NCBI GenBank assembly: GCA_965261125.1
Contig: CBDHCS010000006.1
Location: 461,446 to 525,445 of the forward strand
DNA: 64,000 nucleotides
Direction: 5' to 3'
Origin: Candidatus Poribacteria bacterium
GTDB taxonomy: Bacteria > Poribacteria > WGA-4E > WGA-3G
Each line of letters starts with the position of its first letter. Position 1 is the stretch's first letter. A program made the translations under genes and the position numbers. A model generated the notes under the pieces. It ran no database searches. It was not told the origin of the DNA and saw only the letters and a program-made list of their open reading frames with translations. Of this stretch, positions 6,336 through 41,717 are shown in pieces.

Positions 6336-6347
6336 AATATAAAACGT

Positions 6348-25344: not shown

Positions 25345-26310
25345 TTAATTATACACTTTTATGATTTGTTCAATAGATGTTTCAGGGTTGTATTGATATT
25401 GTCGCTTAATGTTAGCGAAATCCTTCTCAATTGGGTTCAACTTCGGAGCATACGGGGGTAAAAATAGCAAACTCACACCCGTCTCTGTAATCAACCTTGC
25501 TGTCTCTGAACTCTTGTGGAAGGACGCATTATCCATAATGACAACGTGTGTCTCATCAAGCAAAGGACATAACTGATGCTCTAACCACGTATTGAAGGCA
25601 AGCACATCAGAGGCACCTTGAAAAAGCACAAGGGCAGTAAAACTATCTCCGATGTGTGCTGCAATCAAAGTGGTAGATGCATACCGATGCAAACCCGATA
25701 TTTTATCTTGGATACAGACACCCTTCGGAGCATAAGCATACCGACGCAGTTGTGGAGTCGGAAAACCGCTTTCATCAACATAAACAGGCGTTTTACCCCC
25801 GACTTGAATTTCACGATCAAACGCATCAAGATAGGTTTGGCGTTTTTCTGGACACTGTTCTTTATACGTTAGCGTCTTTTTTTCGCGTGATGTTGAGTTT
25901 CCCGAGGGCATACTAGTGCTTAGTCAAGTGTTAATTGATAGGTCTTGAAAGGAATCGGGAATCGGAGTTCCCTCCTACCATAGGCAGTCTATCGGTAGGA
26001 GCGATCTCCGAATCGCGACCTACAATAATATGTTGACAAAGCACTAGATACAGTTCTTGGAAACGCCGAAATGTGTAGCCCGTTCCATCTGTGTGTGGTC
26101 GGGAAAATCAGCAACATGTTGCTTCAGGGCATCGTAGTCGAGCCGATGAGGACCTCGGGGTCCTGGCTTTTTACAACTCAAAGGTGCTTCAGCAGCTAAT
26201 CAGTTATAGATGCTGGTCCGAGAGACGTTATAGGTGCGTGAGGCTTCCGCTTTACTACCATTATGAACAAAATCAAGCACGCGTTTACGTAAATCTGATG
26301 AATAACTCAT
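25345..26310 (-). pseudogene. IS630-family transposase, disrupted (orfA nonsense + MITE insertion before the DDE domain)
   Basis: orfA (26310 downward) reads MSYSSDLRKRVLDFVHNGSKAEASRTYNVSRTSIYN-TGA-LAAEAPLSCKKPGPRGP. The expected Trp codon TGG is TGA. A MITE-B copy at 25913-26052 separates it from orfB (25345..25911), which carries the DDE domain ...VYVDESGF... Confidence 0.7.
25913..26052. repeat. MITE family B copy inserted inside the IS630 transposase gene
   Basis: 28-bp TIRs ctagtgcttagtcaagtgttaattgata / the reverse complement of caataatatgttgacaaagcactag. The core gggaatcggagttccctcctac ... gtaggagcgatctccgaatcgcgac is an imperfect long palindrome. It is flanked by ATA on both sides. 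Confidence 0.6.
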
Positions 26311-26587: not shown

Positions 26588-27331
26588 TCAATTGATCTTT
26601 ATGCAATCGTACCATCGGAGTGTCCGCTTTCCTTTTCGGCTTAGGACACCAGGTTTCCGTTCGACTGGGAAACCGAAGTCGCGATCTTTCTGTGTCAAGA
26701 CATTCCAGTCGGGTGGAAACCATGTTCGGAGGGTTTTACAATGCACTTCAAGGTTTTCACCTTCCCATCCACCGGTTTTGTAATACATGGGACAAACCCA
26801 TCTCTCTCTTCCGCGAGCGTACTGCCGCCATCCCATCACAGAGGCTTGTGATCGGATAATGTTGCCGTCGCGCCAATGCCATTCAATCCCGCTCCAAGGA
26901 TAACCTATTGTGCCAGTACCGCGGTTAATTTCACTCCATCCCAGATCATCGTGGAGCGTAATATAAGAAACGTTTGTGCCCCAAGGTGTTTCGTCGTTGG
27001 CAAATCCCCATTTCTGTCGTCTGTACCAATGTAACGCTCCTGGAATTCGTGACTTGGATACAACAGCGTTCTCAATGGTTTCTATAATGTCAAAAAAACC
27101 TCTATTGTTATAAGGATTATGCACACCCTCACAGAGTGTTAAGGAGTTCACTTCAGGACCGAACCACTTTCCGTTTTTACCGGGTGTTCTATAATATGCG
27201 CCTGATGCTGCAGGTTCAGCGCGCTCGCTTGAATTCAATTTCGCCTTTGCAAATGTGCTCCCAAACATCACACCTAAAACTGCTAATAGCAAAAAGACGT
27301 TAAAAAGTATATCTAAATTTTTTCGTAACAT
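26588..27331 (-). CDS. secreted hypothetical protein (paralog family 2; C-terminal CPMYYKTG motif)
   Basis: Signal peptide MLRKNLDILFNVFLLLAVLGVMFG. The C-terminus WVCPMYYKTGGWEG...WYDCIKIN is shared with the frameshifted paralog at 34144-34870. Confidence 0.65.
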   Translation of the reverse strand: MLRKNLDILFNVFLLLAVLGVMFGSTFAKAKLNSSERAEPAASGAYYRTPGKNGKWFGPEVNSLTLCEGVHNPYNNRGFFDIIETIENAVVSKSRIPGALHWYRRQKWGFANDETPWGTNVSYITLHDDLGWSEINRGTGTIGYPWSGIEWHWRDGNIIRSQASVMGWRQYARGRERWVCPMYYKTGGWEGENLEVHCKTLRTWFPPDWNVLTQKDRDFGFPVERKPGVLSRKGKRTLRWYDCIKIN

Positions 27332-27342
27332 TGTTTTTAGGG

Positions 27343-28026
27343 TTATTCTCGTTTCAGATGTCCCCATGTTGTTGTCAATTTTCGTTTTGGTGATACCGCA
27401 ATCCCGGAAATCGTAACCTCACCTACCCATGCTTCGCCTGTGCTCGCTCTATCTGTAACATACGCTACAAGGACAAAACCGATAATATCAATTTTCGGTA
27501 AGTTCGCGTCTCGAAAATCCATGCGCGATTCGCCATCACCAAACAACTGAAATCTGCCTCCATCAAAGTGCAGCATCATTTCGTTAAGGGTATCTGTATT
27601 CCAGCGTTTGCCGGGACCGAGAAACACTTTGCCATCTCTTGATGCTTGCATATCATTTGTGAAAAATAGGTAATACCCTGTCTCCTCTACTTCCCCATTG
27701 TCATTTAAGAAATGTTTTCCAAGTGCAATGCCGAATTTAATATCATCTGTTGCGCCGATGTTATTCACTGTAATTGTAAAGGTGTCATAAAGTCTGGGGA
27801 AGGCTATAAATTGGTAAAGTTCAAATATAGTTTGCCACTGTTTTTGCGTCTCAATTTTTGTCTTTAAAAACCCCTCCTCAATCTGCCATATAGAGTCACT
27901 GCCTTGTAGTTGCCAGTTGCCTTCTATTTCTTGATCAAAGTTATCTTGCCACGTAACTGCAGCTGCGATTCCCTGTAAAACAGTGAAAGCAAAAATCGTG
28001 ATGAGTATTCTAAAGACGTTTGTCAT
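27343..28026 (-). CDS. secreted hypothetical protein, paralog family 1 (C-terminal ...KLTTTWGHLKRE)
   Basis: Signal peptide MTNVFRILITIFAFTVLQGIAAA. W-x-IEEGFL and the C-terminal tail are shared with the genes at 30538, 31423, 33227 and 37998. Possible distant DUF1080/LamG-like fold, not verifiable here. Confidence 0.65.
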   Translation of the reverse strand: MTNVFRILITIFAFTVLQGIAAAVTWQDNFDQEIEGNWQLQGSDSIWQIEEGFLKTKIETQKQWQTIFELYQFIAFPRLYDTFTITVNNIGATDDIKFGIALGKHFLNDNGEVEETGYYLFFTNDMQASRDGKVFLGPGKRWNTDTLNEMMLHFDGGRFQLFGDGESRMDFRDANLPKIDIIGFVLVAYVTDRASTGEAWVGEVTISGIAVSPKRKLTTTWGHLKRE

Positions 28027-28107
28027 ATTTTCATTGGTTTGAGGATTAGGAATTCGATCAGGTATGCATGACACAAAAACCTGTACCGCAACATATCAGA
28101 GATTTCT

Positions 28108-28359
28108 TTAGGTTCTCTGCCAAGCAATTTTTAATATTTCGTTAGCGTAATCCTGCCCAGATGTTGGCAAAGGTAGGGTTTTACCCTCATGTTGGTATTG
28201 CTCAATTATCTCCTCAACGATGTTACACAATTCTGAAAAACCCTTTTGTTCGTCATCGCCGTGGCATCCACCATAAAAGAGACCTGGACAACTACCAACA
28301 TAACACTGATCTTCATCAGACCATTCGACTATTTTTACGTAACGGGTACTTAGTTTCAT
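28108..28359 (-). CDS. HicB-like (UPF0150) antitoxin-family protein, no HicA partner seen
   Basis: An 83-aa protein ...VEWSDEDQCYVGSCPGLFYGGCHGDDEQKGFSELCNIVEEIIEQYQ... It resembles the HicB N-terminal RNase-H-like domain. Confidence 0.4.
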   Translation of the reverse strand: MKLSTRYVKIVEWSDEDQCYVGSCPGLFYGGCHGDDEQKGFSELCNIVEEIIEQYQHEGKTLPLPTSGQDYANEILKIAWQRT

Positions 28360-28395
28360 TTTAGTTTTTTATAAACAACACACGGCGTGTGCCTA

Positions 28396-30492
28396 CTACT
28401 TTGCAAATGGTGTGCCATCTGCTTTTCCCAAATAGATATGATGTACGTCATCACTACAAACTGGAATTGTAACTTGCTTCTGAATATGGACACGCTGATA
28501 TGTCTGTGGGCCTTTTTCGAATACCGACTGGACAGCATGGATGTTTAACAGATAACGTTCCTGCGTCAAATTTGAAAACGAAAATTTGCCCTGCGCGTCT
28601 GTTTCCGTTTCAAAGCGGTCTAAGGTCAAGGACATATCATATTGGCTTAGTTCCCACGGATACCACGAACGCGATACCAAAGCATTCTGCACAGGTTTGC
28701 CTGTCCCTTCCCAAAGCACTTGTCCCTTTATCCCTAATGTTGGTTTATCTGCAACGATGAGTACTTCTTCACCATTTGTAGATGCTTTCACGTTCATTTC
28801 AGCTGCAGCAATGCCATCTCCCGTAATATAGAGTTTATACTTTTCCTCAAAGAGACCATCCAATACGAAAGTCGTCTCTGTTACAGGAAATCGTTTGGAC
28901 AGAAGCGGTCTGTTCAAAGTTCGCGGATTCAGAGCTGGTTCCATTTTAGCTTTCTCAGGGAATATCTTCACCTCATAAAACCCATTTGATGGAATATCTT
29001 TTGGGAGAATGACACGTCCGTTTATAGCATACCCTTTTTGAAGCGGAACAATCAACGGTTCATTTCCGATTTTTACATTTGGGTAGCCCCTTGAAAGATA
29101 ACCTTTTTTGGACACTTCAACAGACAGGAGATGTGGCTTTGTCTCCAATAGCTGCATTTGAAAAGCACCGTTTGCATCCGTTTGTGTCATCGCTAAAAGT
29201 GCGTCGTGTCCGTGTGGGCTTTCGCTGCGTCGCGCTGCATAGAGATTTGCTTCTGCAATGGGTTTCTGCTCTGCATCAATGACCGTGCCTTTCAACGTTT
29301 GCATTTTTGGCAAGCGGATTTTAAGCGGTTTTTCGCTTTGTGGGTTGACCGACTCCAGAAATGCAATGATAACATTATTATGAGAAATTGTCAAGCTGTA
29401 TTCAATTGGATGGAGTTCAGAAAAGAGAAAATTGCCATCCGCATCGGTTTGCACAATATGTTCGGGTTGTGCTCCAGCACGAAAGAAGTCGGCAGCCTTG
29501 TTGTGCATCTTTAACTGCACCTTGAGTTCATCAACTGTGTAACCTGAGTTTGAAGCAGTAACTTTGCCTTGCAGTGAGAGGAAAGGTTTCAGTGTAAGTT
29601 CACCTAAATCGTATACATTTTTGTCTGGAGACATCTCCCATCGCCAATGGTGCGTTTGGTACTGTGGATGCAATGCTATTACCGTAAAGGCGTAATAGAT
29701 ATCGGAATCATTTGGGACTGTTAGATGGAATTCTCCATTCGTGTTTGTCTCTGTAGGGTGTGCAAACGTACTGCCAGGATAGACGGTATCCTTCACTTCG
29801 GAAGCTGCACGGACAGTAACGCCAGAGATAGGGTTTCCACTTTCAGCATCAACGAAAACACCAGAAAGCGTTGCCCCCGGTTTTAAAAATACTTCTATGC
29901 CGCCGACATGGCTCCCAGGATAAACTGGCATTATAAGTGAGTCGGGTATCGCGAAGACATAGCTATCAAAAGCATCTACAATAACGTATCGCCCCGACAA
30001 CAGATTTTTGACCTCAAAATATCCATTAGATACCTCACCTGGATATGCTTTTTCTATCCACTTACCGTCAGAAGTGAGAAGTCCAACTTGGACTTCACCC
30101 GTTATCGGCAGCGGGAGTTTGGTAACGGAATCAAGCAGAAATCCCGAAATAATCCCTGTGCCTTCAACGGTAAAATCGGCTTTAACATCGGTCTCTTCAG
30201 TAACGGTAACTTCGCGTTGTGCAAGTAACGTGCTGTAATGCCGAATTTTCACATCCCAAGTGCCAGCAGGAAGACTCGTGAGCGTAAACTGCCCACCCAA
30301 ATTTGTTTTGGCAGCGTAAGTTATGTTGTCTGTTTGTGAGACTGCTGAGATGGTGTAGTCGGAGAGTGGGTTGTTTTGGTTATCTGTGACCTGTCCCTGA
30401 ATTGTGCCGACATTTTGAGATTGGCAAATTCCGATGGGAGTACCGAAACATAGCAGAAACAGAGCGACATAAATAAGGGTAGTGTTGTACAT
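28396..30492 (-). CDS. secreted protein with multiple carboxypeptidase-regulatory-like (CarboxypepD_reg) beta-sandwich repeats
   Basis: Signal peptide followed by repeated units of the form GTIQGQVTDNQNNPLSDYTISAV...GGQFTLTSLPAGTWDVKI (G-x-V-x-D...G-x-Y pattern). Length 698 aa. Confidence 0.65.
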   Translation of the reverse strand: MYNTTLIYVALFLLCFGTPIGICQSQNVGTIQGQVTDNQNNPLSDYTISAVSQTDNITYAAKTNLGGQFTLTSLPAGTWDVKIRHYSTLLAQREVTVTEETDVKADFTVEGTGIISGFLLDSVTKLPLPITGEVQVGLLTSDGKWIEKAYPGEVSNGYFEVKNLLSGRYVIVDAFDSYVFAIPDSLIMPVYPGSHVGGIEVFLKPGATLSGVFVDAESGNPISGVTVRAASEVKDTVYPGSTFAHPTETNTNGEFHLTVPNDSDIYYAFTVIALHPQYQTHHWRWEMSPDKNVYDLGELTLKPFLSLQGKVTASNSGYTVDELKVQLKMHNKAADFFRAGAQPEHIVQTDADGNFLFSELHPIEYSLTISHNNVIIAFLESVNPQSEKPLKIRLPKMQTLKGTVIDAEQKPIAEANLYAARRSESPHGHDALLAMTQTDANGAFQMQLLETKPHLLSVEVSKKGYLSRGYPNVKIGNEPLIVPLQKGYAINGRVILPKDIPSNGFYEVKIFPEKAKMEPALNPRTLNRPLLSKRFPVTETTFVLDGLFEEKYKLYITGDGIAAAEMNVKASTNGEEVLIVADKPTLGIKGQVLWEGTGKPVQNALVSRSWYPWELSQYDMSLTLDRFETETDAQGKFSFSNLTQERYLLNIHAVQSVFEKGPQTYQRVHIQKQVTIPVCSDDVHHIYLGKADGTPFAK

Positions 30493-30537
30493 AAGGCTTG
30501 CGTTTTCTCACTAAGTGTGGACCTGGACTTGGCACAA

Positions 30538-31338
30538 CTACTGACGCTGCTTGAGTTGCCCCCACGTCGTTGCTAACTTGGCTTGCGGGGAAACGGATAA
30601 CCCCGGTCCCGATATCTTGAATGAATCCACCCATGCATGTCCAACTCGAAGTCCATTCCCAATCACGACAAACCCAAGAATCTCAACAGAAGAAAATTCA
30701 GGGTCTTCAAAATCAGCACGTTTTTCACCATCAGCGAACCACTGAATATGCCCTTTATTGAAACGTAGTTCCATGGACTCCATTTCTTTAGTCTGCCAGA
30801 TAGTATCGGGATTACGAGGTTCCCGCCCAGACGACTTGCCAAATGCCACACCTCCTCCATCCCAGATGTCAAAACGTACGGAATATGATATATGCATTAG
30901 AAACAGATAGAAAAATGGCCAATCTCCAGGGAGATCGGGGAACCGTCTCCCGATCGCGATGCCAAAACTCCCTTGCGTTTTACGTATGTTTTTTAAGATA
31001 ATTGTGAAGTTTTCGTATCCCGGATTTTTTATCTGTCTCTGAATTAATTCTCCACCTTTGATGCCATCAAAATCTTCATAAGCACCACTGGAATCTTTGA
31101 ATTGGAGTAGTTCTATTGTAGGTCTTGCATCCCCGCCGAAATCGGGTGGTGACTGTATCCATTCCTTTAAAAAGCCGTCTTCTACTTTCCATATAGTATA
31201 TTCGCCCCAATGTTCCCAATTTTTCTCTTTCAAAACGTTAAAATTGTCTTGATAACTTTGTGAAAAAGCGGATGGAGAAAAAATATCGGATACAAAAAAT
31301 AACGTAATGCCTGTTAGAATAAGTATGATATGCTTCAT
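30538..31338 (-). CDS. secreted hypothetical protein, paralog family 1 (C-terminal ...KLATTWGQLKQRQ)
   Basis: Signal peptide MKHIILILTGITLFFVS. It carries WKVEDGFL, GFGIAIGRRFPDLP and FEDPEFS..IGFVVI motifs shared with the 33227 paralog. The conserved C-terminal tail is present. Confidence 0.75.
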   Translation of the reverse strand: MKHIILILTGITLFFVSDIFSPSAFSQSYQDNFNVLKEKNWEHWGEYTIWKVEDGFLKEWIQSPPDFGGDARPTIELLQFKDSSGAYEDFDGIKGGELIQRQIKNPGYENFTIILKNIRKTQGSFGIAIGRRFPDLPGDWPFFYLFLMHISYSVRFDIWDGGGVAFGKSSGREPRNPDTIWQTKEMESMELRFNKGHIQWFADGEKRADFEDPEFSSVEILGFVVIGNGLRVGHAWVDSFKISGPGLSVSPQAKLATTWGQLKQRQ

Positions 31339-31422
31339 GTTACAACTTCCTTATCTTATAGTAAAAACCAATTACCTTACAATGGCGAGGTTAGGAAACC
31401 TCGTCAGCGAGTTTGACTCTGG

Positions 31423-32196
31423 TTAGAATCGCTTCAAATCTCCCCAAGTGGTCGTGAGTTGTGTACCTCGTAATTGTACAGCAAGATTACGTTTAGTAAT
31501 TGCTTTATCAGAAATTGAAATACTTGAGATCCTGCTACCAAACCACTGTCCTCCGACGTGACAGGTAATAAGCAATCCCACAATATCAATGTTTTTTAAG
31601 TTCTCATCAATGAATTCAGTTATCAGATCGTCGTTTGTATATACCTGAAAATGGCCAGTATTAAAAACAGCTGTAAGATCACGTGTCGTATTTTGGAATA
31701 TGTTCCCATACCACGCTTTCGTCTTTCCTCTATTAAATTTTCCCTTCTCTGAAATGGTAACTTTACTAATCTCTTCGGGACTAACGATATAGCCCTCCAC
31801 TGTTAAGTCAGGATCATCTTGACGTTTCCCGATAAACAAGCAGAGTTCCCCCATACCATCTTCTCCTTCCTGTGGATAAGTTATCTCTTCACCTACTATT
31901 GTTAACTGTTCAAAGTTAACATTAATGATTTTCCAGTGCAGGAAATCCGCTGTGTTCTCATCACATATTGGAGGGAGTTCACCGGCGTTCCGGATATTGG
32001 CAAAGAGGAAACCCGCAACAGCTTCCCATTTTGCGTTCCGAGGATTTCCCTGCCTAATTCGTTCCCATCCTTTGAGCCCCTCATCATCAAACGAGTCGTT
32101 CCATACCTTAGCGTAACTGTGTCCACTCAAAAGAACACTTAAGAGTAATAAAAATAAAAATCTGTGAATACCTTTTAAAGTTTTGATTCTCATCAA
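31423..32196 (-). CDS. secreted hypothetical protein, paralog family 1 subgroup b (C-terminal ...QLTTTWGDLKRF)
   Basis: Signal peptide MMRIKTLKGIHRFLFLLLLSVLLSGHSYA. The body aligns with the 37998 gene (ADFLHW..., FDTGKFQ/FNTGHFQ, LITEF). The conserved C-terminal tail is present. Confidence 0.75.
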   Translation of the reverse strand: MMRIKTLKGIHRFLFLLLLSVLLSGHSYAKVWNDSFDDEGLKGWERIRQGNPRNAKWEAVAGFLFANIRNAGELPPICDENTADFLHWKIINVNFEQLTIVGEEITYPQEGEDGMGELCLFIGKRQDDPDLTVEGYIVSPEEISKVTISEKGKFNRGKTKAWYGNIFQNTTRDLTAVFNTGHFQVYTNDDLITEFIDENLKNIDIVGLLITCHVGGQWFGSRISSISISDKAITKRNLAVQLRGTQLTTTWGDLKRF

Positions 32197-33275
32197 AGTT
32201 TACCTCTCTTTTGGCGGGGATGTTCACTTTTTGCGGTGCGAATCAACCCGTAGGCCGGAATAGTAATCGGTAACGATTCTGCTGTAGTTAGTACTTTGAT
32301 TTCTTCGCGCAGCAGTTCAGGCGAGTTTTCCACTTGCCAAAAAACCTTGAACCGTTTTTCTTGTTGTGACTGCGCGTTGTAGGCGTGCAAGGATTGTGTC
32401 CAATCGTCTGGTGCAGTAACCCGCAAATAGTCAGGTACCTGAATACTGAGTACCTTGAAATTCTTTTTCGCAGAAAGTGTGAACTCGGCAGATGGGTTTG
32501 CGTCTTTGTCTACTGCACCGTAGGAAAGGGTTTTCGGTTGCACCGTCACGGGGCGCACGATTCTCGCAGTAATAGGCAACGACAAGGTTCGCTCATTTGG
32601 AAAAGATACGGTAAGCATAGCAGATAAAAGTTTTTCAGCAGTGTCCGGTTCTAATTTTTTCGGAGCCCGTAACTGAATTGTAATGAGGTAGCATCCCGAA
32701 TTCGGATCTGGAGACATTTTCCAAGTCAGGTTTGGATGCGCTGATGGTATGAGTCGGACTTCCTCTAAATTGAGTGGCGCGTTTACACACAGTTTAATTT
32801 TCTTTTTATGTGTCGTTTCAGATAGTACCTGTCCGAAATCGCATATATCAGCACTCAGCGTTGCGAACCGTTTTGCGGTAGCAACAATTGTTAGATAAAC
32901 TTGTGGGGTTCTTGGGCTATCTGTGAAAAGGATCGCTGTTGCCGCTTTTGCATCAGTTGGAACAATTTTGGGGTTAAGCACAACCTCAAACGTTCCTTCC
33001 TCGTTGGGCTGAAGCAGTTTTGGTCCGGTAATTTTTGCATAGCTACACCCTGCTCGAATTCTTTCTATTCGCAGTGGACTTCTTCCCGCATTTTTCGCTG
33101 TCACTGAACGTGTTACGGTCCCCTCCCATTCAGGGATTGTCCCGAAGTTGACTTTATCTTGCGTAAAAACTAATTCTCCAGGGAACTCCTGCTGGTTATT
33201 AACGATCACAATAACCACTACCGAAATCAACAGAACCGGAATGATGATTGTTGTAATAATGGAACGTTTTGACAT
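32193..33275 (-). CDS. membrane-anchored DUF1573-like (ASPM/SPD2/Hydin-type beta-sandwich) protein
   Basis: N-terminal TM helix IITTIIIPVLLISVVVIVIV. The motif FGTIPEWEGTVTRSVTAKNAGRSPLRIERIRAGCSYAKI fits the DUF1573 pattern (G..L.I..v...C). Confidence 0.5.
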   Translation of the reverse strand: MSKRSIITTIIIPVLLISVVVIVIVNNQQEFPGELVFTQDKVNFGTIPEWEGTVTRSVTAKNAGRSPLRIERIRAGCSYAKITGPKLLQPNEEGTFEVVLNPKIVPTDAKAATAILFTDSPRTPQVYLTIVATAKRFATLSADICDFGQVLSETTHKKKIKLCVNAPLNLEEVRLIPSAHPNLTWKMSPDPNSGCYLITIQLRAPKKLEPDTAEKLLSAMLTVSFPNERTLSLPITARIVRPVTVQPKTLSYGAVDKDANPSAEFTLSAKKNFKVLSIQVPDYLRVTAPDDWTQSLHAYNAQSQQEKRFKVFWQVENSPELLREEIKVLTTAESLPITIPAYGLIRTAKSEHPRQKRGKL

Positions 33276-34048
33276 AATGTTACTTCGTGCCTTTTATTTG
33301 TCCCCATGTAGTTGTTACTTTGGCTTGTGGCGAAACGGCAAGTCCTGGACCCCGCGATCGTAAACGAATCTACCCATCCACTCCCAACATGGACTCCATC
33401 TGATATTACCATAAACCCGATGATCTCAATAGGTGAAAACTCGGGGTCTTCAAAATCAGCGCGTTTTTCATTATTCGCAAACCACTGAAAATGCCCCCTA
33501 TTAAAACGAATTTCCATGGATACTAGCTCTCCTGTGTCCCAGAAGGTGTCAGGATGACGCGGATCCTCCTCGCCCCACACATTCGGCACAGACCACTTGT
33601 AAGCTTGTGTCTGTATGCCATAGGTAAAAAAAATATAGAAATACGACAGATCGGGCAAGTCGGGAAACCTCCGTCCAATGGCGACACCAAAACCCGCAGT
33701 ACGTTTTGAACCCATATTTTTAACAGTAATTGTGAAGGACTCATGCCCCGGTTTTTTTTTCTGTCTCTGAATAAAGCGGTTATCAGCGAAAAATTCGAAG
33801 TTCTCGTAGTTGCCTGGAATTCCCTTAAATTGGAACAATGCAGCATTAAAGTCATTCGGTTGTATTGCTGCCCTTAAAAAACCATCTTCAACTTGCCAAA
33901 CAGAATTGTTCCCCCAAAGTTCCCAGTCATCTTCTTTCAAATCATCACCAAAATCGTATTGAAAACTGTCGGCAGATGCGGATAGAGACAAAACACTCAA
34001 CACAACGATTAACGCAGGACTTATCCAAGTTTTTGCGATCTGTTTCAT
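33227..34048 (-). pseudogene. secreted paralog family 1 member with C-terminal frameshift (conserved tail displaced to +1 frame)
   Basis: In frame, the body ends ...WVDSFTIAGSRTCRFATSQ.... A 1-nt shift near gcggggtcc (about 33290) instead gives ...GPGLAVSPQAKVTTTWGQIKGTK*, matching the family tail. The start MKQIAKTWISPALIVVLSVLSLSASA is at 34048. Confidence 0.6.
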
Positions 34049-34143
34049 GAAACACCTCCTTACTTTTACGTCATTGGTAAAAATGCAATGGTAAAAGATA
34101 TAAACCCTCTTCCCATTGCTTGAAAAGGTTGAAACTTTCAATT

Positions 34144-34870
34144 CTAATTCAACTCTATGCAATCGAACCAAGTTCCTTCAAATGATCCTTGTAATACTTC
34201 CCGACTTAGTATTCCCTCATGAAATTCAGGATCCCCAAAATCACCATCCACTTCTTTTGCGAATTTTAGGGATAATTGGGTACGATTAGGTCTATAAACC
34301 CAGGTACCTGTTTTGTAGTACATCGGACAGATATATCTCGTGCCATCATCTTCGGTATGCTTTCTATACCCTGTCACATCGGCTGAGCCTGTTACTATGA
34401 GGGAACCCTCGTCACTTTCATGTATTTCGTATCCTGCCCAAGGATATCCAACATCAGTACCAACACCATCACTAATATAATCCCATTTAATATCGCGGTT
34501 GAGAGAAATGTTGGAGTAAGTGGTTCCCCATGGAGGGGCATCATGGTTTGTGCTAAAAAGCCAAACTTGATATCGATTCCAAATGACAGTACTTGGCTTT
34601 GATGATACTAAAATATAAGCACACTCATTTGTGAATATGATTTCAAAACCTTGGTTCCAGTCTCCACCGTTTAAAGTGGTGTTATTGATTTCTGGTCCGA
34701 AGAACTTACCATCCTTACCGGGATCTCTGTAATAATCACCAGATTCTTCTGGATAAGCGGTTTCTAAACCAGGAGTTATTGCAGAATCTTAAAGAAAAAG
34801 TGAAAAAACCGATTGACAAAACCGCAACAGGAAGTAAAGCGGTCAGGATTAAATCTAATGGTTTGCGTTG
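34144..34870 (-). pseudogene. paralog family 2 member, frameshifted between signal peptide and mature domain
   Basis: Frame A reads MRKQRKPLDLILTALLPVAVLSIGFFTFSL... then a stop. Frame B continues ...ESGDYYRDPGKDGKFFGPEINN...YICPMYYKTGTWVY...WFDCIELN*, homologous to the 26588 gene. The shift lies in a T-rich tract (ttttttcactttttc). Confidence 0.6.
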
Positions 34871-35006
34871 TTTACGCATTGTTTTATCCTCCTAAATAAT
34901 TTGGTATAGTTTCTAAAGGATTCAGAAACTGACATATATTTTGTATTAAATCGCTTTTTTTGTCAAGCAAAATTTCGTGTTTTTTTGTAATAAATATTAG
35001 TTGCAA

Positions 35007-37881
35007 TTATTCTAATATAGACTTACCTCGTTCCCAGGAGTCTTTCAACTTCTTTTCATTGCTTGAAAAATCGTGCTCCCGATATTTTGGATCGGGTTGG
35101 GTTGCATCGGGATAATCAATTTTCCAGAGTCGGAAGCCTTCAGATTCACATCGCAATTCAGAATTAGTGTCATATATCAATGAAAAACCTGGGATTTCCT
35201 CTAAAAAGAGATATAACCTCACTGTGAGTAAACGTGCAGCCTTTGCTGAAAGATAGAATGCTTGCGATTTTCCTTCTGCTTCGTTCCGATAAACAACCAC
35301 AGAACCGGGAACTCCTTTTTTCTCATGACTGATGTGTGATGTGCCAACCCGAAATTCTGAGGGTGGTAGCGAAAATTTTCCATCTTTGGTTACACCATGA
35401 ACTTTTGATGTCCAAGTATCACTGTCGGATGTAATTGAGACACCTTGCAGCATCCATTCCCCAGGTGGATAGTTCTTTCCATTTAACGAAAGCGTATCCA
35501 TGGGGCGAGGGTTGTGTGGAATCATGTCTGTTTGTTGAACTGAAGGTGACACTTGTTGACTTTGAACTGGCATTAGAAAATGAACAGAGGCAACACGGTC
35601 AAACGTCTCATCAGATCCTATATACGTAATACCGTCAAGTTTAAGGAGTTCGTTTGTCGTTATCAATAGATGCGTAACGTTGTGTGTTTTTAAAAATGTA
35701 AGAACTTCGGTAGAAGATGGATCACTAAAAACATGACGTGCAAACATAAATATCCAATATGGAATATAGTGGTCTGAATCAATAACGGTTGCTCGGTTAG
35801 CAAACCAGTGTATCTTACTTCCGTAATCCCACCATGCGGCTATAACTGCGTTTTCATCTGTATGTTTTGCAATATTGTTAAGTTGTGTGTTAAACTTCAA
35901 TGATGCAGGAACTACTGTATCACGGACCGTCTCGGTACTTGAACGAACAAATCCTTTGTGCAGCGGGAAGGGAGCAGGATTAAAAACGCCACCTACGAAA
36001 AAAACATCTGAACTTGTGAAAAGGATGAGAATACACACAGTCGCGAGGCAGCCAAACCTCTGGAAATGGGATATCTTAAGTCGTGCCAACTTGTACAGCA
36101 GCAAAATCCCGAAAAGTGTACACGGGACCGTCAAGCCAAGAAAAATCCACCCTATGAAACTACCTGCAGTAGATAGACAATATCCGATATATAGTTCAGA
36201 AGCTACGATAAGACTTATTACGCACAATTCTGTTGGCACGGTTCCGAATACAGGCCCTTGTGCTTCAGTCTGCTCATAAGAATCACTCTCAATCCGCTCC
36301 TTCATACATCTGCGCAGGACCTTAAAAATTAGCAAACTCACCAATACGGAAAACACGGGATCAATAAAAAAGAGATAACGCACTGCGCCACGGCTGCTGG
36401 CGAGTCCAACAAAGATCTATATTAACACCAATAAGGACTTATTATTGCCATGGTGGTCTCCTTTTCGAAGGATATATGCTACGCCTATTGTAATCCCGCC
36501 CACCAAAAAGGAAAGTCCAAAGATACTAAAAGAGACATCTGAGTTTGTAAGGAAAAGAGAAAGGAGAGTACCACAAAGCGCGATTTCAAAACCGACAAGA
36601 GTTAACCAAAAAATGACGCGCTCTTTTGAGAAGAAATTGTAAACTAATACACCACAACCTGCCATTGCTGCCAAACCTACAACTGAATAGTTACCGAGAA
36701 ATTGGATGCCGTTTAAGTTCTCAAGTTCTGAAACAGTACGCATAAGCCGATTCTGGCCTAATGGTGAGACAAAATTGTCAAACAGTCGACGTATTGTTTC
36801 CTCAATATCAGGTGATTGTAACAGAGTTAGGCCCGCCAACAGGAACGTGGTGATAACACAACCGAGAAGGCATCTATGGATGTTGCTGTAACTTGAGAAT
36901 TCCAGCAAACGTTTCCATAATGAAACGGGTTTTTCTGCTTTGGTAGTTTTTGAATTATCCTTTCCAAAAAATGTGAGGTTACAGAAAAGGGTAATAGTTG
37001 GAATGACAATTGCCAAAAAAACATAAGGTGCCCAGATATTATGGTAGGTACGCGTAAATGTGAAAGCAAGGACGGTGAAGCAGAGATACCAGGTAACGTA
37101 AAGTGATGCACTTTGACGAGAAAAACGTCCTCGCAGTACACGGACAATGATCCAGATAGAAAGTATAACTATCGCGAGGCCTACCCCTTCCCAAGAAAGT
37201 GCGATCAATCCTCCAGCAATTCCTGATACAGCTGCATAAAAGTAACTTATCGGTTTGCCAACTGATGTTTTAGAGGTGGTAACAGAAGATGACTTTGGTT
37301 TTGGCAGAGCAGATTCTGCTTTCAGATAAAACAGAAACATAACCAACCACAACAATAGGACGAAAGCATCTCTGTCGGCAAAACCGGCGGCGGAACGATG
37401 CAGATTCAAGGAAGGGAAAATTGCAGTAAAATTGACAGCAAGGAGTGCAATGGATGTATCAAAAACATGCCGCCAAAGAACGTAAAGTATTAACAGACAT
37501 AGCACGTAACACAATAGGTGCATACGCCGCGACCGCGTAGAGGCTAATGTTTGGAAAAACCGAATGCAGAAAGTGATATGTGTAGGCAAGGACATAAGAA
37601 AAGAGATTAAGAGAAGTTGATAAATCTCTCCCTTCCAATTGCCATCGCTGCGCGTCTAAATCTGGCAAACGTCCTTGGGAAACAATCAGATCGGCTTGGC
37701 GAAGAAAACGATAGGAATCTGTGCCGAGTAGATATGTTTCTTCCAAGCGCGGCAGATTCGCTGTTCGGACAAATACACAGAGAAGTAGCAAACTGCTTAA
37801 TAGGCATAAAAGCACAGCAGACAAGACTGACTGTTTTATCCACCGTTGACAGAACATCCACATGTTCGCAAGACACTTCAA
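35007..37881 (-). pseudogene. STT3/AglB/PglB-type oligosaccharyltransferase homolog, split into three ORFs (one frameshift, one in-frame TAG)
   Basis: ORF 37459..37881 has the N-terminal TM plus GTDSYRFLR (DxD-type loop). ORF 36417..37595 is polytopic membrane core. ORF 35007..36383 has AAWWDYGSKIHWFANRATVIDSD (the WWDYG catalytic motif followed by the ANRxT pattern of STT3). ORFs 2 and 3 are in the same frame, separated only by a TAG followed by IFVGLASSRGA. ORFs 1 and 2 overlap in different frames. Confidence 0.65.
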
Positions 37882-37997
37882 TGATTCACACCTCTAACAT
37901 TTTATGAAGCGGTAGGTTGTATTTAAAATATATCTTCGGTCAATACCTGTTTAATTTGAAAGGAACGTATAAGAAATTTCGTGTGTTTTAGCTTTAT

Positions 37998-38890
37998 TTA
38001 GGGACGTTTTAACTTTCCCCAAGTTGTAGTTAACTGCCTTTCTCGTAACTGCACTTCTCGTAACTGCCTATCAAGAATATAGTATTGAGGGATACCACTG
38101 CCCGAAATAGAAAAAGTTGATATACTACCAGAAAAAAAACCACCTGGGGGTTCAAACACAGCCATCAAACCTACGGCATCGATCTTATTGATATCCTCAT
38201 CAAAAAATTCAGTTATTAGAAGGTCTTGTGTCCAAAGTTGAAACTTTCCAGTATCAAAAACCACCCTTATATTATCTGAAGTCAATCGGAACATGAGTTC
38301 ATAATCTGCTTTGACTTCGCCTCTTTTGAAGACACCCTTGGCGGAACATCGCATTTCTGTTGTCTTTTCGGGACTGAACATATAACCTTCTGCAAAGTCA
38401 GGGTCGGGGAGTCGTTTGCCAAGGAATAAGCCAAGTTCACCAGATTCATCATGGTGGCGAGCGGGGTGTTGGTGATAGATTATTTTTTCACCCATGACCA
38501 CTAACTTCTCAAGTTGAAATTGATGGGCATTCCAGTGTAGAAAATCCGCTGCTGTCACATGTTCTGCTTGTGGTTTCACAACATCAACACCGAGCCATCC
38601 AAAATCAGCATCAGGCCTTGTATCATCTTCGAATTGTCTCCATTCTACATGATAAGGCAACCATTCTACAATACGTTTCCACCCGTTGAATCCCTTTATA
38701 TCAAACTTTCTGACTAGCTCTCCGTCAAACTCATCCCTCCATGTATCGGCATGACTGGGTACAATTAGTGTAAGTACTCAAAAGTATTGCACAAGAAACG
38801 ATAAAAATTATATACTTTCTTATGCACGAATAAGGATTAGAAAATCTATAAGAACTAAAAATAAAACTTCTATTTCTCATAGAGCACCTC
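37998..38890 (-). pseudogene. secreted paralog family 1 subgroup b member (C-terminal ...QLTTTWGKLKRP), N-terminal frameshift
   Basis: Intact ORF 37998..38660. Upstream, a signal peptide (MRNRSF...IIFIVSCAILLS) sits in one frame and SHADTWRDEFDGELVRKFDIKGFNGWKRIVEW in another. The latter matches KVWNDSFDDEGLKGWERI of the 31423 gene. Confidence 0.55.
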
Positions 38891-39433: not shown

Positions 39434-40315
39434 ATGGATTTGATTATGATTATGGAGATGTTTCCTGATCAAGCGGCGTGTATCGCATATTTAGAGCAGC
39501 TGCGGTGGCAGGGATCCCCTGAATGTCCCCATTGTGAGTCTACTCATATCAACAAGCGCAATGAAACGGCTACAGGGCGTATCGGGCGTTGGAATTGCCA
39601 CGATTGTCATAGCACTTTCAAGGTTACGTCTGGCACAATGTTTGTTGGAACGCAGATCGCACTTCAGAAATGGTTTCTGGCGATCGCGTTGATGGCAAAC
39701 GCAAAGAAAAGTCTCTCAAGTTGTCAACTTGCACGCGATTTAGGATTGAAACAAAGAACAGCCTGGCGAATAATGATGTGTATACGTGCTGAAATGGGTA
39801 AGGATAACGTGTTGCTACAAGGTATCGTTGAAGCCGATGAAACCTATATCGGTGGCAGCAGTAGAAAAGATTACGACAAAGAGGAAGGTGAACCCCGTAA
39901 GCGTGGGCGTGGCACTGCGAAAGATGCCGTTATGGGTGCTGTAGCACGTGGCGGGAAAGTCGTAGCAGAACTTGTTTCGGATATTGCTGGGGAGACAATC
40001 GCTGACTTCATTATGAGGGTTGTCAACACCGAAGACGCTAAACTGTATACCGACCAGTTCAAAGGATACACCGAAATCGGTAAAGAGATGGAACATCAAA
40101 CAATCAACCGGAGTGAACAGTGGGTAGCTGATGGGATACATACCCATACGATGGAAGGGTTCTGGTCTTTCGTTAAACGTGCAGGGTATGGCTCACATCA
40201 TCATTATTCAACAGGTTACACACCACTGTATCTCGCAGAGGCGTGCTACAAATACAACTACAGAGGAACGAACATCTTTGCCAAGTTTCTCACAGAGAGT
40301 ATGGAGTCCGGGTAA
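39434..40315 (+). mobile_element. IS1595-family (ISXO2-like) transposase gene
   Basis: N-terminal zinc ribbon CPHCES...CHDCH. The DDE core VEADETYIGG is characteristic of IS1595 transposases. Upstream, a long hairpin (39349-39420) overlaps the RBS, and there is a 9-bp perfect palindrome attagggggttgtcaccccctaat. Confidence 0.75.
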
Positions 40316-40409: not shown

Positions 40410-40979
40410 GTGGATATTTTAATGATTCCAGATGATGTTTATGTGCACAAAACAGTAGAAGGCGATGTTGAGGCATTTAACGAATTGGTCAATCGCCATC
40501 ATACCAAAATTTATGGGCTTGCATACCGAATGCTCGGCAATGCCGAGGATGCCGAGGATGCCACGCAAGAGACATTTTTAGAGGCTTATAAGTCAATAAA
40601 AACGTTTCGATTCCAGTCGCAATTTGGAACGTGGCTATATAAGGTCGGTCTAAACACTTGCAATCAATATATTCGCAAAAGCAAAACCCGTAACAGAATG
40701 TTAGATGCTTACACGGAAGAGACAGCGTCTCACGGCTTGGCTGAGGAGCAGGAAGTTCCTGATCGGCTGGTAATTAAGGCTGAACAACGCGAGGTTGTTC
40801 AAGCTGCTATTGATCGTTTGCCGCCGAAGCAACGTGAGGTTGTGACGCTCTATTATATGCAGCAACTCAAATACAAAGAGATTGCTGAGATCCTTAATTG
40901 TTCTCTCGGAACTGTCGCCTCACGGTTAAATAAAGCAATACAGAATCTCAAAACGAAGTTGAAAAAATACTATTTTTGA
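40410..40979 (+). CDS. ECF-subfamily RNA polymerase sigma factor (sigma-70 regions 2 and 4)
   Basis: Region 2 ...AEDATQETFLEAYKSIKTFRF...FGTWLYKVGLN and region 4 LPPKQREVVTLYYMQQLKYKEIAEILNCSLGTVASRLNKA. Confidence 0.8.
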   Translation: MDILMIPDDVYVHKTVEGDVEAFNELVNRHHTKIYGLAYRMLGNAEDAEDATQETFLEAYKSIKTFRFQSQFGTWLYKVGLNTCNQYIRKSKTRNRMLDAYTEETASHGLAEEQEVPDRLVIKAEQREVVQAAIDRLPPKQREVVTLYYMQQLKYKEIAEILNCSLGTVASRLNKAIQNLKTKLKKYYF

Positions 40980-40997: not shown

Positions 40998-41717
40998 GTG
41001 AATAAATTCTTACCCTATAAAGCGAGGATGGTTAAAATGAATTGTGAACAGACTCGTGAAAACTTGGTTTTACACCGTCAGGATCCCTTGTTAAAAGGGG
41101 CGGAGCGGCGCGATTTTTTACAACATCTGCGTGGTTGCAAGGCATGCCAAGTCGAATATGAAGGATTATGGCATACTGCAACGGTGCTCGGTAGTCTTGA
41201 TGCTCCGGAACCGCCCCCCGAATTACTGGGAAATATCCAACGTCAAATACGAGAAGTCCATAGGAGAGATAGCACTGCCTTCTTCGCGGCTCCGATCACC
41301 TGGCTTTTCGGTAAATTTAAGTTAGATATATCTCCGTTGTTTGTGAATTGTGTTGCGTTGCTTTGCTATCTGATCGCATCCGTCTTCTTGGTGAAATTTG
41401 CATTCTTTACAAAGGCACCGGAACAAAATTTCGGTTTGACCGCATTTGAAGAGACACGACTCCGAAATGCACGTATTTCTCCATCACCTTGGGCATCCCT
41501 GAAACACGGTAGCGCGCAGGTTGAGAAGCCATTTCCTACAGAAGCACTGCAGGAGAGTCATGTGAACCCTATCAGTCCATTTGTTGGCAGTGAGTCAGCA
41601 GTTATGTGGCATGCCCGCGCTATTAATAAAGTCACAGAAGATGTTGATGGACATTTTGCGAAAACAGCAAGCGAAAAACTCGCCCTATTTTGGAATGACA
41701 TCAAAACAGATCTGTGA
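40998..41717 (+). CDS. putative anti-sigma factor (zf-HC2 type) with a TM segment
   Basis: H-x3-C-x2-C motif HLRGCKACQVEYEGLWH and one hydrophobic helix (VNCVALLCYLIASVFLVKFAFF). It lies immediately downstream of the ECF sigma gene. Confidence 0.6.
   Translation: MNKFLPYKARMVKMNCEQTRENLVLHRQDPLLKGAERRDFLQHLRGCKACQVEYEGLWHTATVLGSLDAPEPPPELLGNIQRQIREVHRRDSTAFFAAPITWLFGKFKLDISPLFVNCVALLCYLIASVFLVKFAFFTKAPEQNFGLTAFEETRLRNARISPSPWASLKHGSAQVEKPFPTEALQESHVNPISPFVGSESAVMWHARAINKVTEDVDGHFAKTASEKLALFWNDIKTDL

Follow-up and report, generated by a model that had tools for sequence, protein, structure and literature searches.

A portable C-terminal tail on exported lectin-like proteins of Candidatus Poribacteria that resembles a sorting or docking tag of an undescribed kind

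Every open reading frame (ORF) between positions 26588 and 38880 of the window, the whole 64-kb stretch of Candidatus Poribacteria DNA analyzed here, is encoded on the minus strand, which bears out the co-directional cluster described in an initial inspection of the DNA (hereafter, the sequence-only reading). The cluster consists of the following genes and features:

26588-27367, minus strand: p252, exported Trp/Cys-rich protein of ~252 aa, its gene directly following that of lectin A in 81 of 82 Poribacteria loci
27343-28074, minus strand: tailed lectin A, intact and exported, of probable DUF1080-like type and predicted ConA fold (243-aa ORF, likely start M17), ending in ...AVSPKRKLTTTWGHLKRE
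27352-27399, minus strand: lectin A tail block of 16 residues, AVSPKRKLTTTWGHLK, with RE between it and the stop codon
28396-30492, minus strand: CarboxypepD_reg protein, exported, 698 aa with five CarboxypepD_reg repeats, its gene directly preceding that of lectin A in 81 of 82 Poribacteria loci
30538-31338, minus strand: tailed lectin C1, intact, 266 aa, with a signal peptide; tail block at 30550-30597, SVSPQAKLATTWGQLK
31423-32196, minus strand: tailed lectin D1, intact, 257 aa, with a signal peptide; tail block at 31432-31479, VQLRGTQLTTTWGDLK
32193-33275, minus strand: DUF1573/choice-of-anchor-D-like exported protein, with a homologue in 43 of 82 loci
33280-34048, minus strand: tailed lectin C2 (initially described as the 33227 gene), disrupted; tail block at 33292-33339, AVSPQAKVTTTWGQIK, in a shifted frame
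34144-34879, minus strand: decayed paralogue of p252 (~41% identity), with a frameshift near 34750 and the signal-peptide part in another frame
35007-37881, minus strand: pseudogene of an STT3/AglB-like oligosaccharyltransferase (OST), in three ORFs
37998-38880, minus strand: tailed lectin D2, broken by a frameshift near 38780, with its tail block, VQLRERQLTTTWGKLK, at 38007-38054

A six-frame regular-expression scan of the whole 64 kb with TWG.[LIVM][KR] produced exactly five matches, all on the minus strand (27352-27372, 30550-30570, 31432-31452, 33292-33312, and 38007-38027), each with a stop codon 2-3 codons beyond the motif. These are the five genes already reported to share a C-terminal tail, a claim that the scan confirms; it found no match elsewhere in the window. 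The window tails read (K/Q)L(T/A)TTWGx(L/I)K plus two or three trailing residues (RE, QRQ, RF, GTK, and RP) and have the general form …V-x-P-x-x-K-L-T-T-T-W-G-x-L-K.

The five proteins form one family in alignment, with 26-38% identity to the first (27343), and fall into three sub-groups rather than the two initially proposed, namely A (27343), C (30538 and 33227), and D (31423 and 37998). As two members of the family are disrupted, selection on the system is not uniform in this genome. The tail of lectin C2, which had been noted as out of frame, is present, and its displacement is explained by one surplus G in the GGGG run at 33350-33353; deleting one G restores ...DSFTIAGPGLAVSPQAKVTTTWGQIKGTK. 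In lectin D2, the signal peptide (start ATG at 38880) is encoded in a frame different from that of the rest of the gene. The OST gene is split by a frameshift near 37513 and a TGG-to-TAG nonsense codon at 36417-36419, and all three pieces match a single reading frame in the relatives L011 and L012. All these disrupted genes, together with the decayed p252 paralogue, are clustered in the 33.2-38.9 kb segment.

Comparison with related loci delineates a conserved core, present in 81 of the 82, in which a tailed lectin lies between the CarboxypepD_reg protein and the 252-aa protein. The OST lies outside this core and was detected in 5 of 81 related loci, with a whole or nearly whole gene in four. 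Accordingly, the earlier proposal that the cluster encodes a cell-surface system including the OST, a pseudogene here, is less well supported than the reading of the tail. The p252 protein is found only in Poribacteria and contains no known domain; its AlphaFold model, built from 20 near-identical sequences, has a pLDDT of 43.7. An ORF at 40998-41717, located after an ECF sigma gene in the window, has a tail-like end, KLALFWNDIKTDL, and is without orthologues or domains.

The AlphaFold model of lectin A has a mean pLDDT of 85.9, with values above 85 in the sandwich core. A Foldseek search of the PDB with this model yielded 201 matches at E ≤ 0.001, with TM-scores of ~0.4-0.5, the top matches being legume lectins, GH16 enzymes, and the DUF1080-like protein 3u1x. 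On the strength of the model, the window family is predicted to be a ConA-like lectin/glucanase jelly-roll beta-sandwich. By profile comparison, the window proteins appear to be a divergent DUF1080-like (PF06439, 3-keto-disaccharide hydrolase) branch of Candidatus Poribacteria. The earlier guess at DUF1080 is thereby supported in part: hhalign aligned the family with bona fide DUF1080-type tail proteins with 98.9% probability (E = 3.5e-17, 203 columns, the shared tail and the signal peptide included), but a Pfam hmmscan of the window proteins did not match PF06439 at E ≤ 0.1. Both DUF1080 and LamG (PF13385) have the ConA-like fold of the window family and are the commonest carriers of the tail; the window proteins are nevertheless out of reach of the two Pfam models, and the tail is absent from both.

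The tail might have been simply the last strand of a known domain, and this is not the case. In the AlphaFold model, the last strand (E211-227) closes the sandwich at residue 227 (...TISG), ~5 residues ahead of the tail block, and tail residues 229-242 are modelled as a low-confidence helix (pLDDT 56-65). Consistently, PF06439 reaches profile position 186/187 at residues 199 of 222, 220 of 249, and 238 of 267 in DUF1080-type carriers, and the PF13385 match ends at residues 259 of 288 and 231 of 260 in LamG-type carriers, so that both profiles are complete ~20-30 residues short of the C-terminus. Together, the strand end in the model and the early ends of the Pfam profiles place the tail outside the domain. 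The amphipathicity of the tail has a beta periodicity 6-10 SD over that of shuffled sequences; an exposed hairpin or strand would agree with this pattern, which conflicts with the low-confidence helix of the AlphaFold model. An amphipathic-helix membrane anchor, prompted by that helix and by the L/W/L spacing, was rejected as the leading mechanism, since the tail exceeds shuffled sequences in beta periodicity but not in helical hydrophobic moment.

The distribution of the tail extends well beyond the window family. A scan of 1.575 Mb of Poribacteria DNA located W[GA]x[LIVM]K at 200 sites, 195 of them 1-7 residues from a stop codon and 5 more than 50 residues away, and all 212 matches of a tail HMM at E < 0.01 are C-terminal, with none internal. 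When the HMM was built from non-family tails alone, the window-family tails scored 24-30 bits. On the carriers, the motif extends to A-V-x-P-x-(G/D)-K-L-x-T-T-W-G-x-(I/L)-K-x(0-8)-stop, and the overall consensus of ~16-18 residues is A-V-x-P-x-(G/D/K)-K-L-(T/A/S)-T-T-W-(G/A)-x-(L/I)-K, with 0-8 polar or basic residues between its last position and the stop codon. In Poribacteria loci, the tail ends CBM9_1, Laminin_G_3, PD40, lamin-tail, and SnoaL-like proteins, and the 59 Pfam-annotated metagenome carriers contain LamG (24) and DUF1080 (9) as well as F5/8-C, Kelch, and PD40 domains; a LamG-type tail reads, for example, AVEPTGKLATTWGSIKSR. The tail is thus found on at least eight unrelated domain types outside the window family, nearly always with signal peptides: a hydrophobic N-terminal segment is present in 95% of 222 tailed ORFs, and the signal peptides of the metagenome carriers are evident. 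Among the matches listed, all 120 homologues retain the tail, with the linker and domain diverging to ~25% identity, and tail genes are arranged in tandem arrays.

The metagenome DNA pattern, P-x-[GDE]-K-[LF]-x-T-T-W-G, did not extend to the end of the motif and gave at least 120 matches. Among the 120 matches listed, 96 continue as x-[ILMV]-[KR]-x(0-8)-stop, and position -10, which the pattern does not constrain, is Val in 82 of these 96 completed tails. The same pattern yielded three matches in viral contigs, with no complete tail. A 46-aa C-terminal profile retrieved 17 short gene fragments, all with the end of a LamG domain followed by the tail. Giant multi-LamG proteins dominated a search of representative sequences with a profile that joined the LamG end to the tail, and its result is uninformative on the tail. 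With regard to taxonomy, all 80 genome loci of the window family are labelled Poribacteria, as are all eight carrier clusters that bear an organism name among the 30 looked up. None of the Pfam and NCBIfam models matches the tail, and a PDB search with the tail profile returned chance internal matches only, for example, to a GH3 motif.

No gene family was found to co-occur with all tail genes, the CarboxypepD_reg and p252 genes accompanying the window family only. The recurrent neighbors in 85 metagenome loci are DUF6785/DUF6784, GFO/IDH/MocA, hybrid kinase, and TPR-spermine-synthase-like genes, each in 6-9 of the 85, with DUF6785 and GFO/IDH/MocA genes near tail genes in 7-9.

The reading that we favor, with a probability of roughly 0.6, is that the tail serves as a portable C-terminal recognition tag, free of any membrane-spanning segment, for the retention or docking of exported glycan-binding modules, as judged from comparative sequence analysis. 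The tail would be joined via a short linker to the ends of many Sec-exported proteins, mostly single-domain modules of glycan-binding type, in Candidatus Poribacteria. After export, it would not pack into the folded domain but stay exposed, as a strand or hairpin, and would be recognized by a conserved envelope component; this recognition would retain, dock, or further sort the binding module at the cell envelope. For the window family, the neighboring CarboxypepD_reg repeat protein and the 252-aa protein would be the obvious candidate partners, the former being, by pure inference, a candidate scaffold. The variable distance of 0-8 residues between the conserved Lys and the C-terminus argues against recognition that depends on a free carboxylate. 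The sequence-only reading had already taken the tail for a sorting, tethering, or recognition signal rather than a fold element. That it is portable and no fold element held up in both tests that bear on the claim; that the tail is recognized, and to what effect, is what we infer. The more specific proposal that it is the address label of a new Poribacteria-specific sorting or surface-docking system, a soluble tag of strand or hairpin type read by dedicated putative machinery, is tentative, and we would give it somewhat less than even odds. If true, the label would place scores of lectin-like proteins on the envelope of uncultured sponge symbionts and their free-living relatives, and this placement would shape the capture of host or environmental glycans.

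Several other explanations deserve consideration. The repeated occurrence of the motif at gene ends, and nothing else, could point to a nucleotide-level element at gene 3′ ends, such as a terminator, a recombination site, or a repeat, or to a chance resemblance. Yet the 214 distinct tail DNA blocks use all four Thr, six Leu, both Lys, and four Gly codons at the conserved positions; such free variation of synonymous codons indicates selection on the protein and rules out a DNA-level element, and the C-terminal enrichment is far above chance, leaving these possibilities a negligible probability. The tail might instead pack against the domain that carries it, serving as a general cap or added strand conserved for stability only, which would be compatible with its beta periodicity and with the membership of many carriers (window family, DUF1080, LamG) in the ConA-like clan, where the N- and C-terminal strands are adjacent. 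We consider this very unlikely given that the identical tail is found on beta-propellers (PD40, Kelch) and on CBM9, F5/8-C, lamin-tail, and SnoaL-like folds, that linker length and sequence are variable, that AlphaFold sets the tail outside the sandwich with low confidence, and that tandem SnoaL-like paralogues differ, one copy ending in the tail and the other lacking it. Slightly less credible still is a glycosylation acceptor, in which the nearly invariant Thr-Thr would be modified by the neighboring GT-C enzyme (STT3/PMT-like), with the tail as its recognition site. Such a GT-C oligosaccharyltransferase-like gene does lie inside the cluster, is syntenic in four to five related loci, and shares the 33.2-38.9 kb segment with the other disrupted genes. 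However, three tailed genes are intact although the OST is a pseudogene here, the tail lacks the N-x-S/T sequon that STT3-type enzymes require, and the OST-like family is absent among the most recurrent, Pfam-annotated neighbor clusters of tail genes in the metagenome loci.

Two further alternatives assign the tail a partner in the envelope. Covalent anchoring, whereby the near-invariant Lys, perhaps exposed by trimming of 1-3 trailing residues, is cross-linked to peptidoglycan or a surface glycan, would suit exported carriers in which Lys occupies position +4 in 145 of 146 tail blocks and in 87 of 96 metagenome tails, always 0-8 residues from the end. This Lys is, however, the last residue in only 2 of the 96 tails and is replaced in the remaining 9 by Arg, which is incapable of forming the same isopeptide bond; furthermore, a recurrent L,D-transpeptidase or sortase-like gene was not found beside the tail genes, so that we regard anchoring of this kind as unlikely. 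To be doubted a little more is a degron or regulatory-proteolysis tag, read by a periplasmic tail-specific protease or a PDZ-domain protein that sets turnover or signals envelope status. The extreme C-terminal position of the motif agrees with this reading, as do a carrier that is an ECF-sigma/Kelch fusion (L134) and the tail-like end of the ORF at 40998-41717, behind the ECF sigma gene, although the latter, for want of orthologues and domains, is unconfirmed as a tail. Recognition of the Prc or PDZ type reads the last, usually non-polar, residues, whereas those of the tail are variable, polar or basic, and 0-8 in number, and a degron conserved phylum-wide on scores of unrelated secreted binding proteins would be odd.

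The recognition tag that we favor bears on how the surface of these bacteria can be studied. Dedicated envelope machines were discovered by way of the LPXTG, PEP-CTERM, and T9SS CTD signals, one for each, and C-terminal sorting tags offer a cheap readout of the surface proteome from sequence alone. Poribacteria are a dominant, uncultured phylum of sponge symbionts; their tail is short, without a membrane-spanning part, and confined to Poribacteria among named sequences. It singles out exported glycan-binding proteins as a set that can be tested, provides a peptide bait for the receptor, and can be used as a simple annotation marker for proteins labelled "hypothetical" or "LamG domain-containing."

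Among the known C-terminal signals, LPXTG, PEP-CTERM, GlyGly-CTERM, and MYXO-CTERM resemble the tail in being short, taxon-restricted motifs near the C-terminus of exported proteins with unrelated domains, with many carriers per genome. The sortase, exosortase, and rhombosortase signals, however, carry past the motif a basic cluster and a hydrophobic helix that spans the membrane, both of which the tail lacks: its conserved Lys is followed by only 0-8 residues, mostly R/K/A/S/Q, implying that the membrane does not retain the substrate. Braun lipoprotein (Lpp), the exported substrate of L,D-transpeptidase, likewise shows a conserved Lys at its C-terminal end, but there it is the last residue, whereas the tail Lys usually has 1-3 residues after it and is sometimes Arg; the attachment of T9SS cargo to A-LPS is a further parallel to covalent anchoring. 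Encapsulin (…GSLK-type) and BMC cargo peptides are also short C-terminal tags past a flexible linker, with a superficial G-x-L-K resemblance, but their cargo is cytoplasmic, and the signal peptides of the tail carriers exclude an encapsulin-like cargo tag. The T9SS CTD (TIGR04183/PF18962, Por_Secre_tail) is similarly a C-terminal signal on many unrelated Sec-exported, often glycan-binding proteins, yet it is a folded beta-sandwich of ~70-100 residues, compared with 16-18 for the tail; its Pfam and NCBIfam models do not match the five window proteins and are absent among the best 25 families of the 59 metagenome carriers. With neither a hydrophobic segment nor a CTD model match, the tail indeed corresponds to none of the LPXTG, PEP-CTERM, GlyGly-CTERM, and T9SS signals, as initially noted. 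The literature on the motif and on Poribacteria sorting signals does not describe the tail; the one related item reports T9SS-like CTDs, and no Por structural genes, in Poribacteria single-cell genomes (Kamke et al. 2014, PMC3909097). One metagenome neighbor of a tail gene (L188) carries a T9SS-type CTD. The dockerin-cohesin system offers the parallel of a linker-joined, modular C-terminal appendage on diverse carbohydrate-active or carbohydrate-binding proteins and suggested docking to a repeat-containing scaffold, although dockerin is a duplicated Ca-binding domain of ~70 residues (PF00404), far longer than the tail, and dockerin and cohesin Pfam models match neither the window proteins nor the carriers. 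By analogy, the tail of Poribacteria would act as a minimal dockerin or T9SS-type sorting tag that dispenses with both a folded domain and a membrane-spanning segment.

The C-terminal block of about 16 residues (V-x-P-x-x-K-L-T-T-T-W-G-x-L-K) on five lectin-like proteins of the window is best regarded as a sorting or docking tag. It is strictly C-terminal, portable across unrelated folds, under selection at the protein level and without a match to any curated model, and its carriers are exported, mostly glycan-binding modules. In a six-frame scan, TWG.[LIVM][KR] occurs exactly five times in the 64 kb, always on the minus strand and two to three codons upstream of a stop; these are the five genes for which the sequence-only reading had claimed a constant tail, and that claim is borne out. 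Its co-directional cluster is likewise confirmed by the ORF list, with a minus-strand run that is uninterrupted from 26588 to about 38880. The features of the region are as follows:

25345-25911: DDE_3 transposase gene, flanking the cluster on one side
26588-27367 (-): p252, an exported protein
27343 (-): tailed lectin A
28396-30492 (-): CarboxypepD_reg protein with five repeats
30538 (-): tailed lectin C1
31423 (-): tailed lectin D1
33227/33280 (-): tailed lectin C2
34144-34879: decayed p252 paralogue, adjoining C2
35007-37881 (-): STT3/AglB-like oligosaccharyltransferase (OST) homologue
37998 (-): tailed lectin D2
39434-40315: IS1595-family transposase gene, flanking the cluster on the other side

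The five tailed proteins form one family in alignment (26-38% identity to the first), their N-terminal parts consisting of a signal peptide followed by W-x-D-x-F-D…W…G-x-W-x-(I/V)-E-x-G-F-L. Two of the five genes are disrupted: that at 33227 has one surplus G within the run 33350-33353, removal of which restores …GPGLAVSPQAKVTTTWGQIKGTK, and the signal peptide of that at 37998 (ATG at 38880) lies in a different frame. The OST homologue noted earlier is indeed present but is a pseudogene in the window, with a frameshift near 37513 and a TGG->TAG change at 36417-36419, which is a true nonsense substitution, the related locus L012 having Trp there. Together, C2, the p252 paralogue, OST and D2 are four neighbours within the 33.2-38.9 kb segment, one end of which adjoins the IS1595 transposase; 33280-38880 looks like real decay of one segment rather than sequencing error alone. 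The DDE_3 gene occupies the site of the second tailed lectin of related genomes (type B, ending …KVTSTWAQLK), which is absent from the window.

A profile search with the family retrieved 258 relatives, none of which has a Pfam domain; each named match is Candidatus Poribacteria, and the tail is kept in all 120 listed relatives as KLT(T/A)(T/I)W(G/A)xLK plus 1-5 residues at the end. One-genome-per-species scanning gave 103 relatives; the 80 loci retained come without exception from MAGs of Poribacteria or from unnamed sponge-metagenome MAGs. Pfam and NCBIfam do not recognize the window's tailed proteins. The AlphaFold model of the 27343 protein is a beta-sandwich (mean pLDDT 85.9), placed by Foldseek among ConA-like lectins and glucanases, and the profile-profile match of the family to bona fide DUF1080-type proteins (98.9% probability, E 3.5e-17, over columns that take in the shared tail and the signal peptide) suggests a divergent DUF1080-like branch. 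The tail is not the last strand of a known domain: the final strand of the model spans residues 211-227 (…TISG) and the tail 229-242, at pLDDT 56-65, and the Pfam profiles of LamG and DUF1080 carriers run out about 20-30 residues short of the C-terminus.

Across 1.575 Mb of Poribacteria DNA (81 loci and the window; 3256 ORFs), 195 of the 200 occurrences of W[GA]x[LIVM]K lie 1-7 residues from a stop, and all 212 matches to a tail HMM (E<0.01) are C-terminal. Clustering of the 194 strictly tailed ORFs separated the family (176) from several other groups, and carriers outside it include CBM9_1 and Laminin_G_3 proteins, PD40 beta-propellers, a lamin-tail-domain protein and a SnoaL-like lipoprotein. 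An HMM trained solely on nine tails from outside the family scores family tails at 24-30 bits; the motif is therefore the same. By the same loose measure, a hydrophobic N-terminal segment is present in 95% of tailed ORFs versus 51% of other ORFs in these loci. Tandem SnoaL-like paralogues (5260-5817 and 6101-6742 in the comparison locus L001; orthologues in about 14 loci) offer a natural with/without pair for probing the tail's role: one ends …ANNL without a tail, and the other in a variant, …LLPIVW(S/T)TLKQxx, of which LLPIVW(S/T)TLK is kept between species. A sub-type with a fixed extension, …TTWGxIKHELFSR, recurs on differing carriers (L087, L140, L144, L146). In the window, an ORF at 40998-41717 (+), just 3' of an ECF sigma-factor gene (40410-40979), has a tail-like end, …EKLALFWNDIKTDL; this likeness may be due to chance, since the ORF lacks both a Pfam domain and an orthologue among the comparison loci, and the relaxed regex behind the match is expected to yield about 2 chance matches.

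A DNA pattern encoding only P-x-[GDE]-K-[LF]-x-T-T-W-G matched at least 120 loci in metagenome contigs, with x-[ILMV]-[KR]-x(0-8)-stop completing the match in 96 of the 120 listed. Among the completed matches listed, positions outside the pattern are kept as well, with Val at -10 in 82 of 96 and Ala, Ser or Pro at -11. In viral contigs the same pattern gave three matches, none completing the tail. The 59 full-length metagenome carriers, with evident signal peptides, comprise Laminin_G_3 (24), DUF1080 (9), F5/8 type C, Kelch, PD40 and further types, and share no NCBIfam model. At least two tail genes stand in tandem in 21 of 85 metagenome loci (six within 8 kb in L092), and the window cluster is typical in this respect. 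Exact-sequence look-up of 30 carriers gave eight named 90% clusters, all Candidatus Poribacteria. The sole other label met is that of a 'Bacteroidota bacterium' MAG (MEC8831239.1), under which, as well as under Candidatus Poribacteria, an identical LamG-plus-tail sequence (P0419) is recorded; a binning error is the probable cause. Because just 8 of 30 carriers' clusters are named and the contigs derive from a wide variety of samples, including Hainich 'Hain-H43' assemblies and one Tara Oceans mesopelagic scaffold, restriction to the phylum Poribacteria is likely, not proven.

The conserved core of the neighbourhood (82 loci) comprises the CarboxypepD_reg multi-repeat protein (81), tailed lectin A, p252 (81) and, in most cases, a second tailed lectin; 43 loci have DUF1573. 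An OST homologue was detected in just five related loci; in L011 and L012 all three OST pieces match within a single reading frame, so that the gene looks unbroken there. The Trp/Cys-rich p252 (252 aa) is found only in Poribacteria, with orthologues at least 69% identical, and in metagenome locus L189 a distant homologue has a tailed lectin as its neighbour. The gap separating lectin A from the CarboxypepD_reg gene contains an 83-aa ORF without a Pfam match in the window (28108-28359, -) and, in L001 (9221-9943), a 91-aa ORF and a PIN-domain gene resembling a toxin-antitoxin insertion within an otherwise conserved operon. In L134, an ECF sigma factor (regions 2 and 4) is fused with a Kelch beta-propeller and the tail (…IEPKGKLPTTWGDMRTASKK) in a single 621-aa ORF (571-2436, +), which could connect envelope signalling with the tag; five loci have related Kelch-plus-tail proteins. 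A large DUF6785/DUF6784 protein, often with a GFO/IDH/MocA oxidoreductase alongside, adjoins tail genes in 7 of 85 metagenome loci (L103, L106, L142, L151, L155, L171, L178); the window's own gene (13621-15525, +) lies beside a sulfatase (12093-13553), 12 kb from the cluster. This neighbourhood may be a glycan-uptake module partnering DUF1080-type tail proteins.

Neither finding that the sequence-only reading had named as counting against its idea was obtained: the tail is not covered by a known domain, and it does occur beyond the family. That the tail is a sorting, tethering or recognition signal and not a fold element holds as to its portability and its position outside the fold; as to function, we consider it probable (roughly 0.6) that an envelope component reads the tag and would thereby retain, dock or sort the carrier modules. 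The most likely sub-mechanism would be non-covalent docking through a strand or hairpin; in the window family, p252 and the protein with CarboxypepD_reg repeats are candidate partners. The hydrophobic moment shows beta periodicity 6-10 SD above shuffled sequences and helical periodicity not above them, for which reason AlphaFold's low-confidence tail helix is given little weight; an exposed strand or hairpin is favoured, with the P-x-G-K stretch looking like a turn. No PDB chain has the tail.

Covalent anchoring via the conserved Lys, which is seldom the terminal residue, is unlikely, and a degron or regulatory tag on these exported proteins slightly more so. With the tail lying beyond the final strand, at low pLDDT, an intramolecular cap is improbable. 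More doubtful still is a role of the tail as glycosylation acceptor, modified by the GT-C enzyme encoded nearby. In 214 distinct tail DNA blocks, the conserved Thr, Leu, Lys and Gly residues are encoded by every synonymous codon, which rules out a nucleotide-level element; a DNA-level or chance origin carries next to no weight.

Literature searches found no published description of the tail. Among known systems, the T9SS CTD and dockerins are most similar in working to the proposed tag, which is likewise an address module at the C-terminus of exported proteins of diverse kinds, although it lacks the defining features of both. The tripartite sortase/exosortase signals differ in having a transmembrane segment, Lpp in its terminal Lys, and encapsulin tags in that the carriers here have signal peptides. 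Kamke et al. (2014, PMC3909097) reported T9SS-like CTDs in Poribacteria that have no T9SS, in agreement with a tail-gene neighbour in L188 (2-2329, +) that has a T9SS-type Por_Secre_tail/CHU_C C-terminal domain. The tail is a second orphan signal of Poribacteria, distinct from these CTDs.
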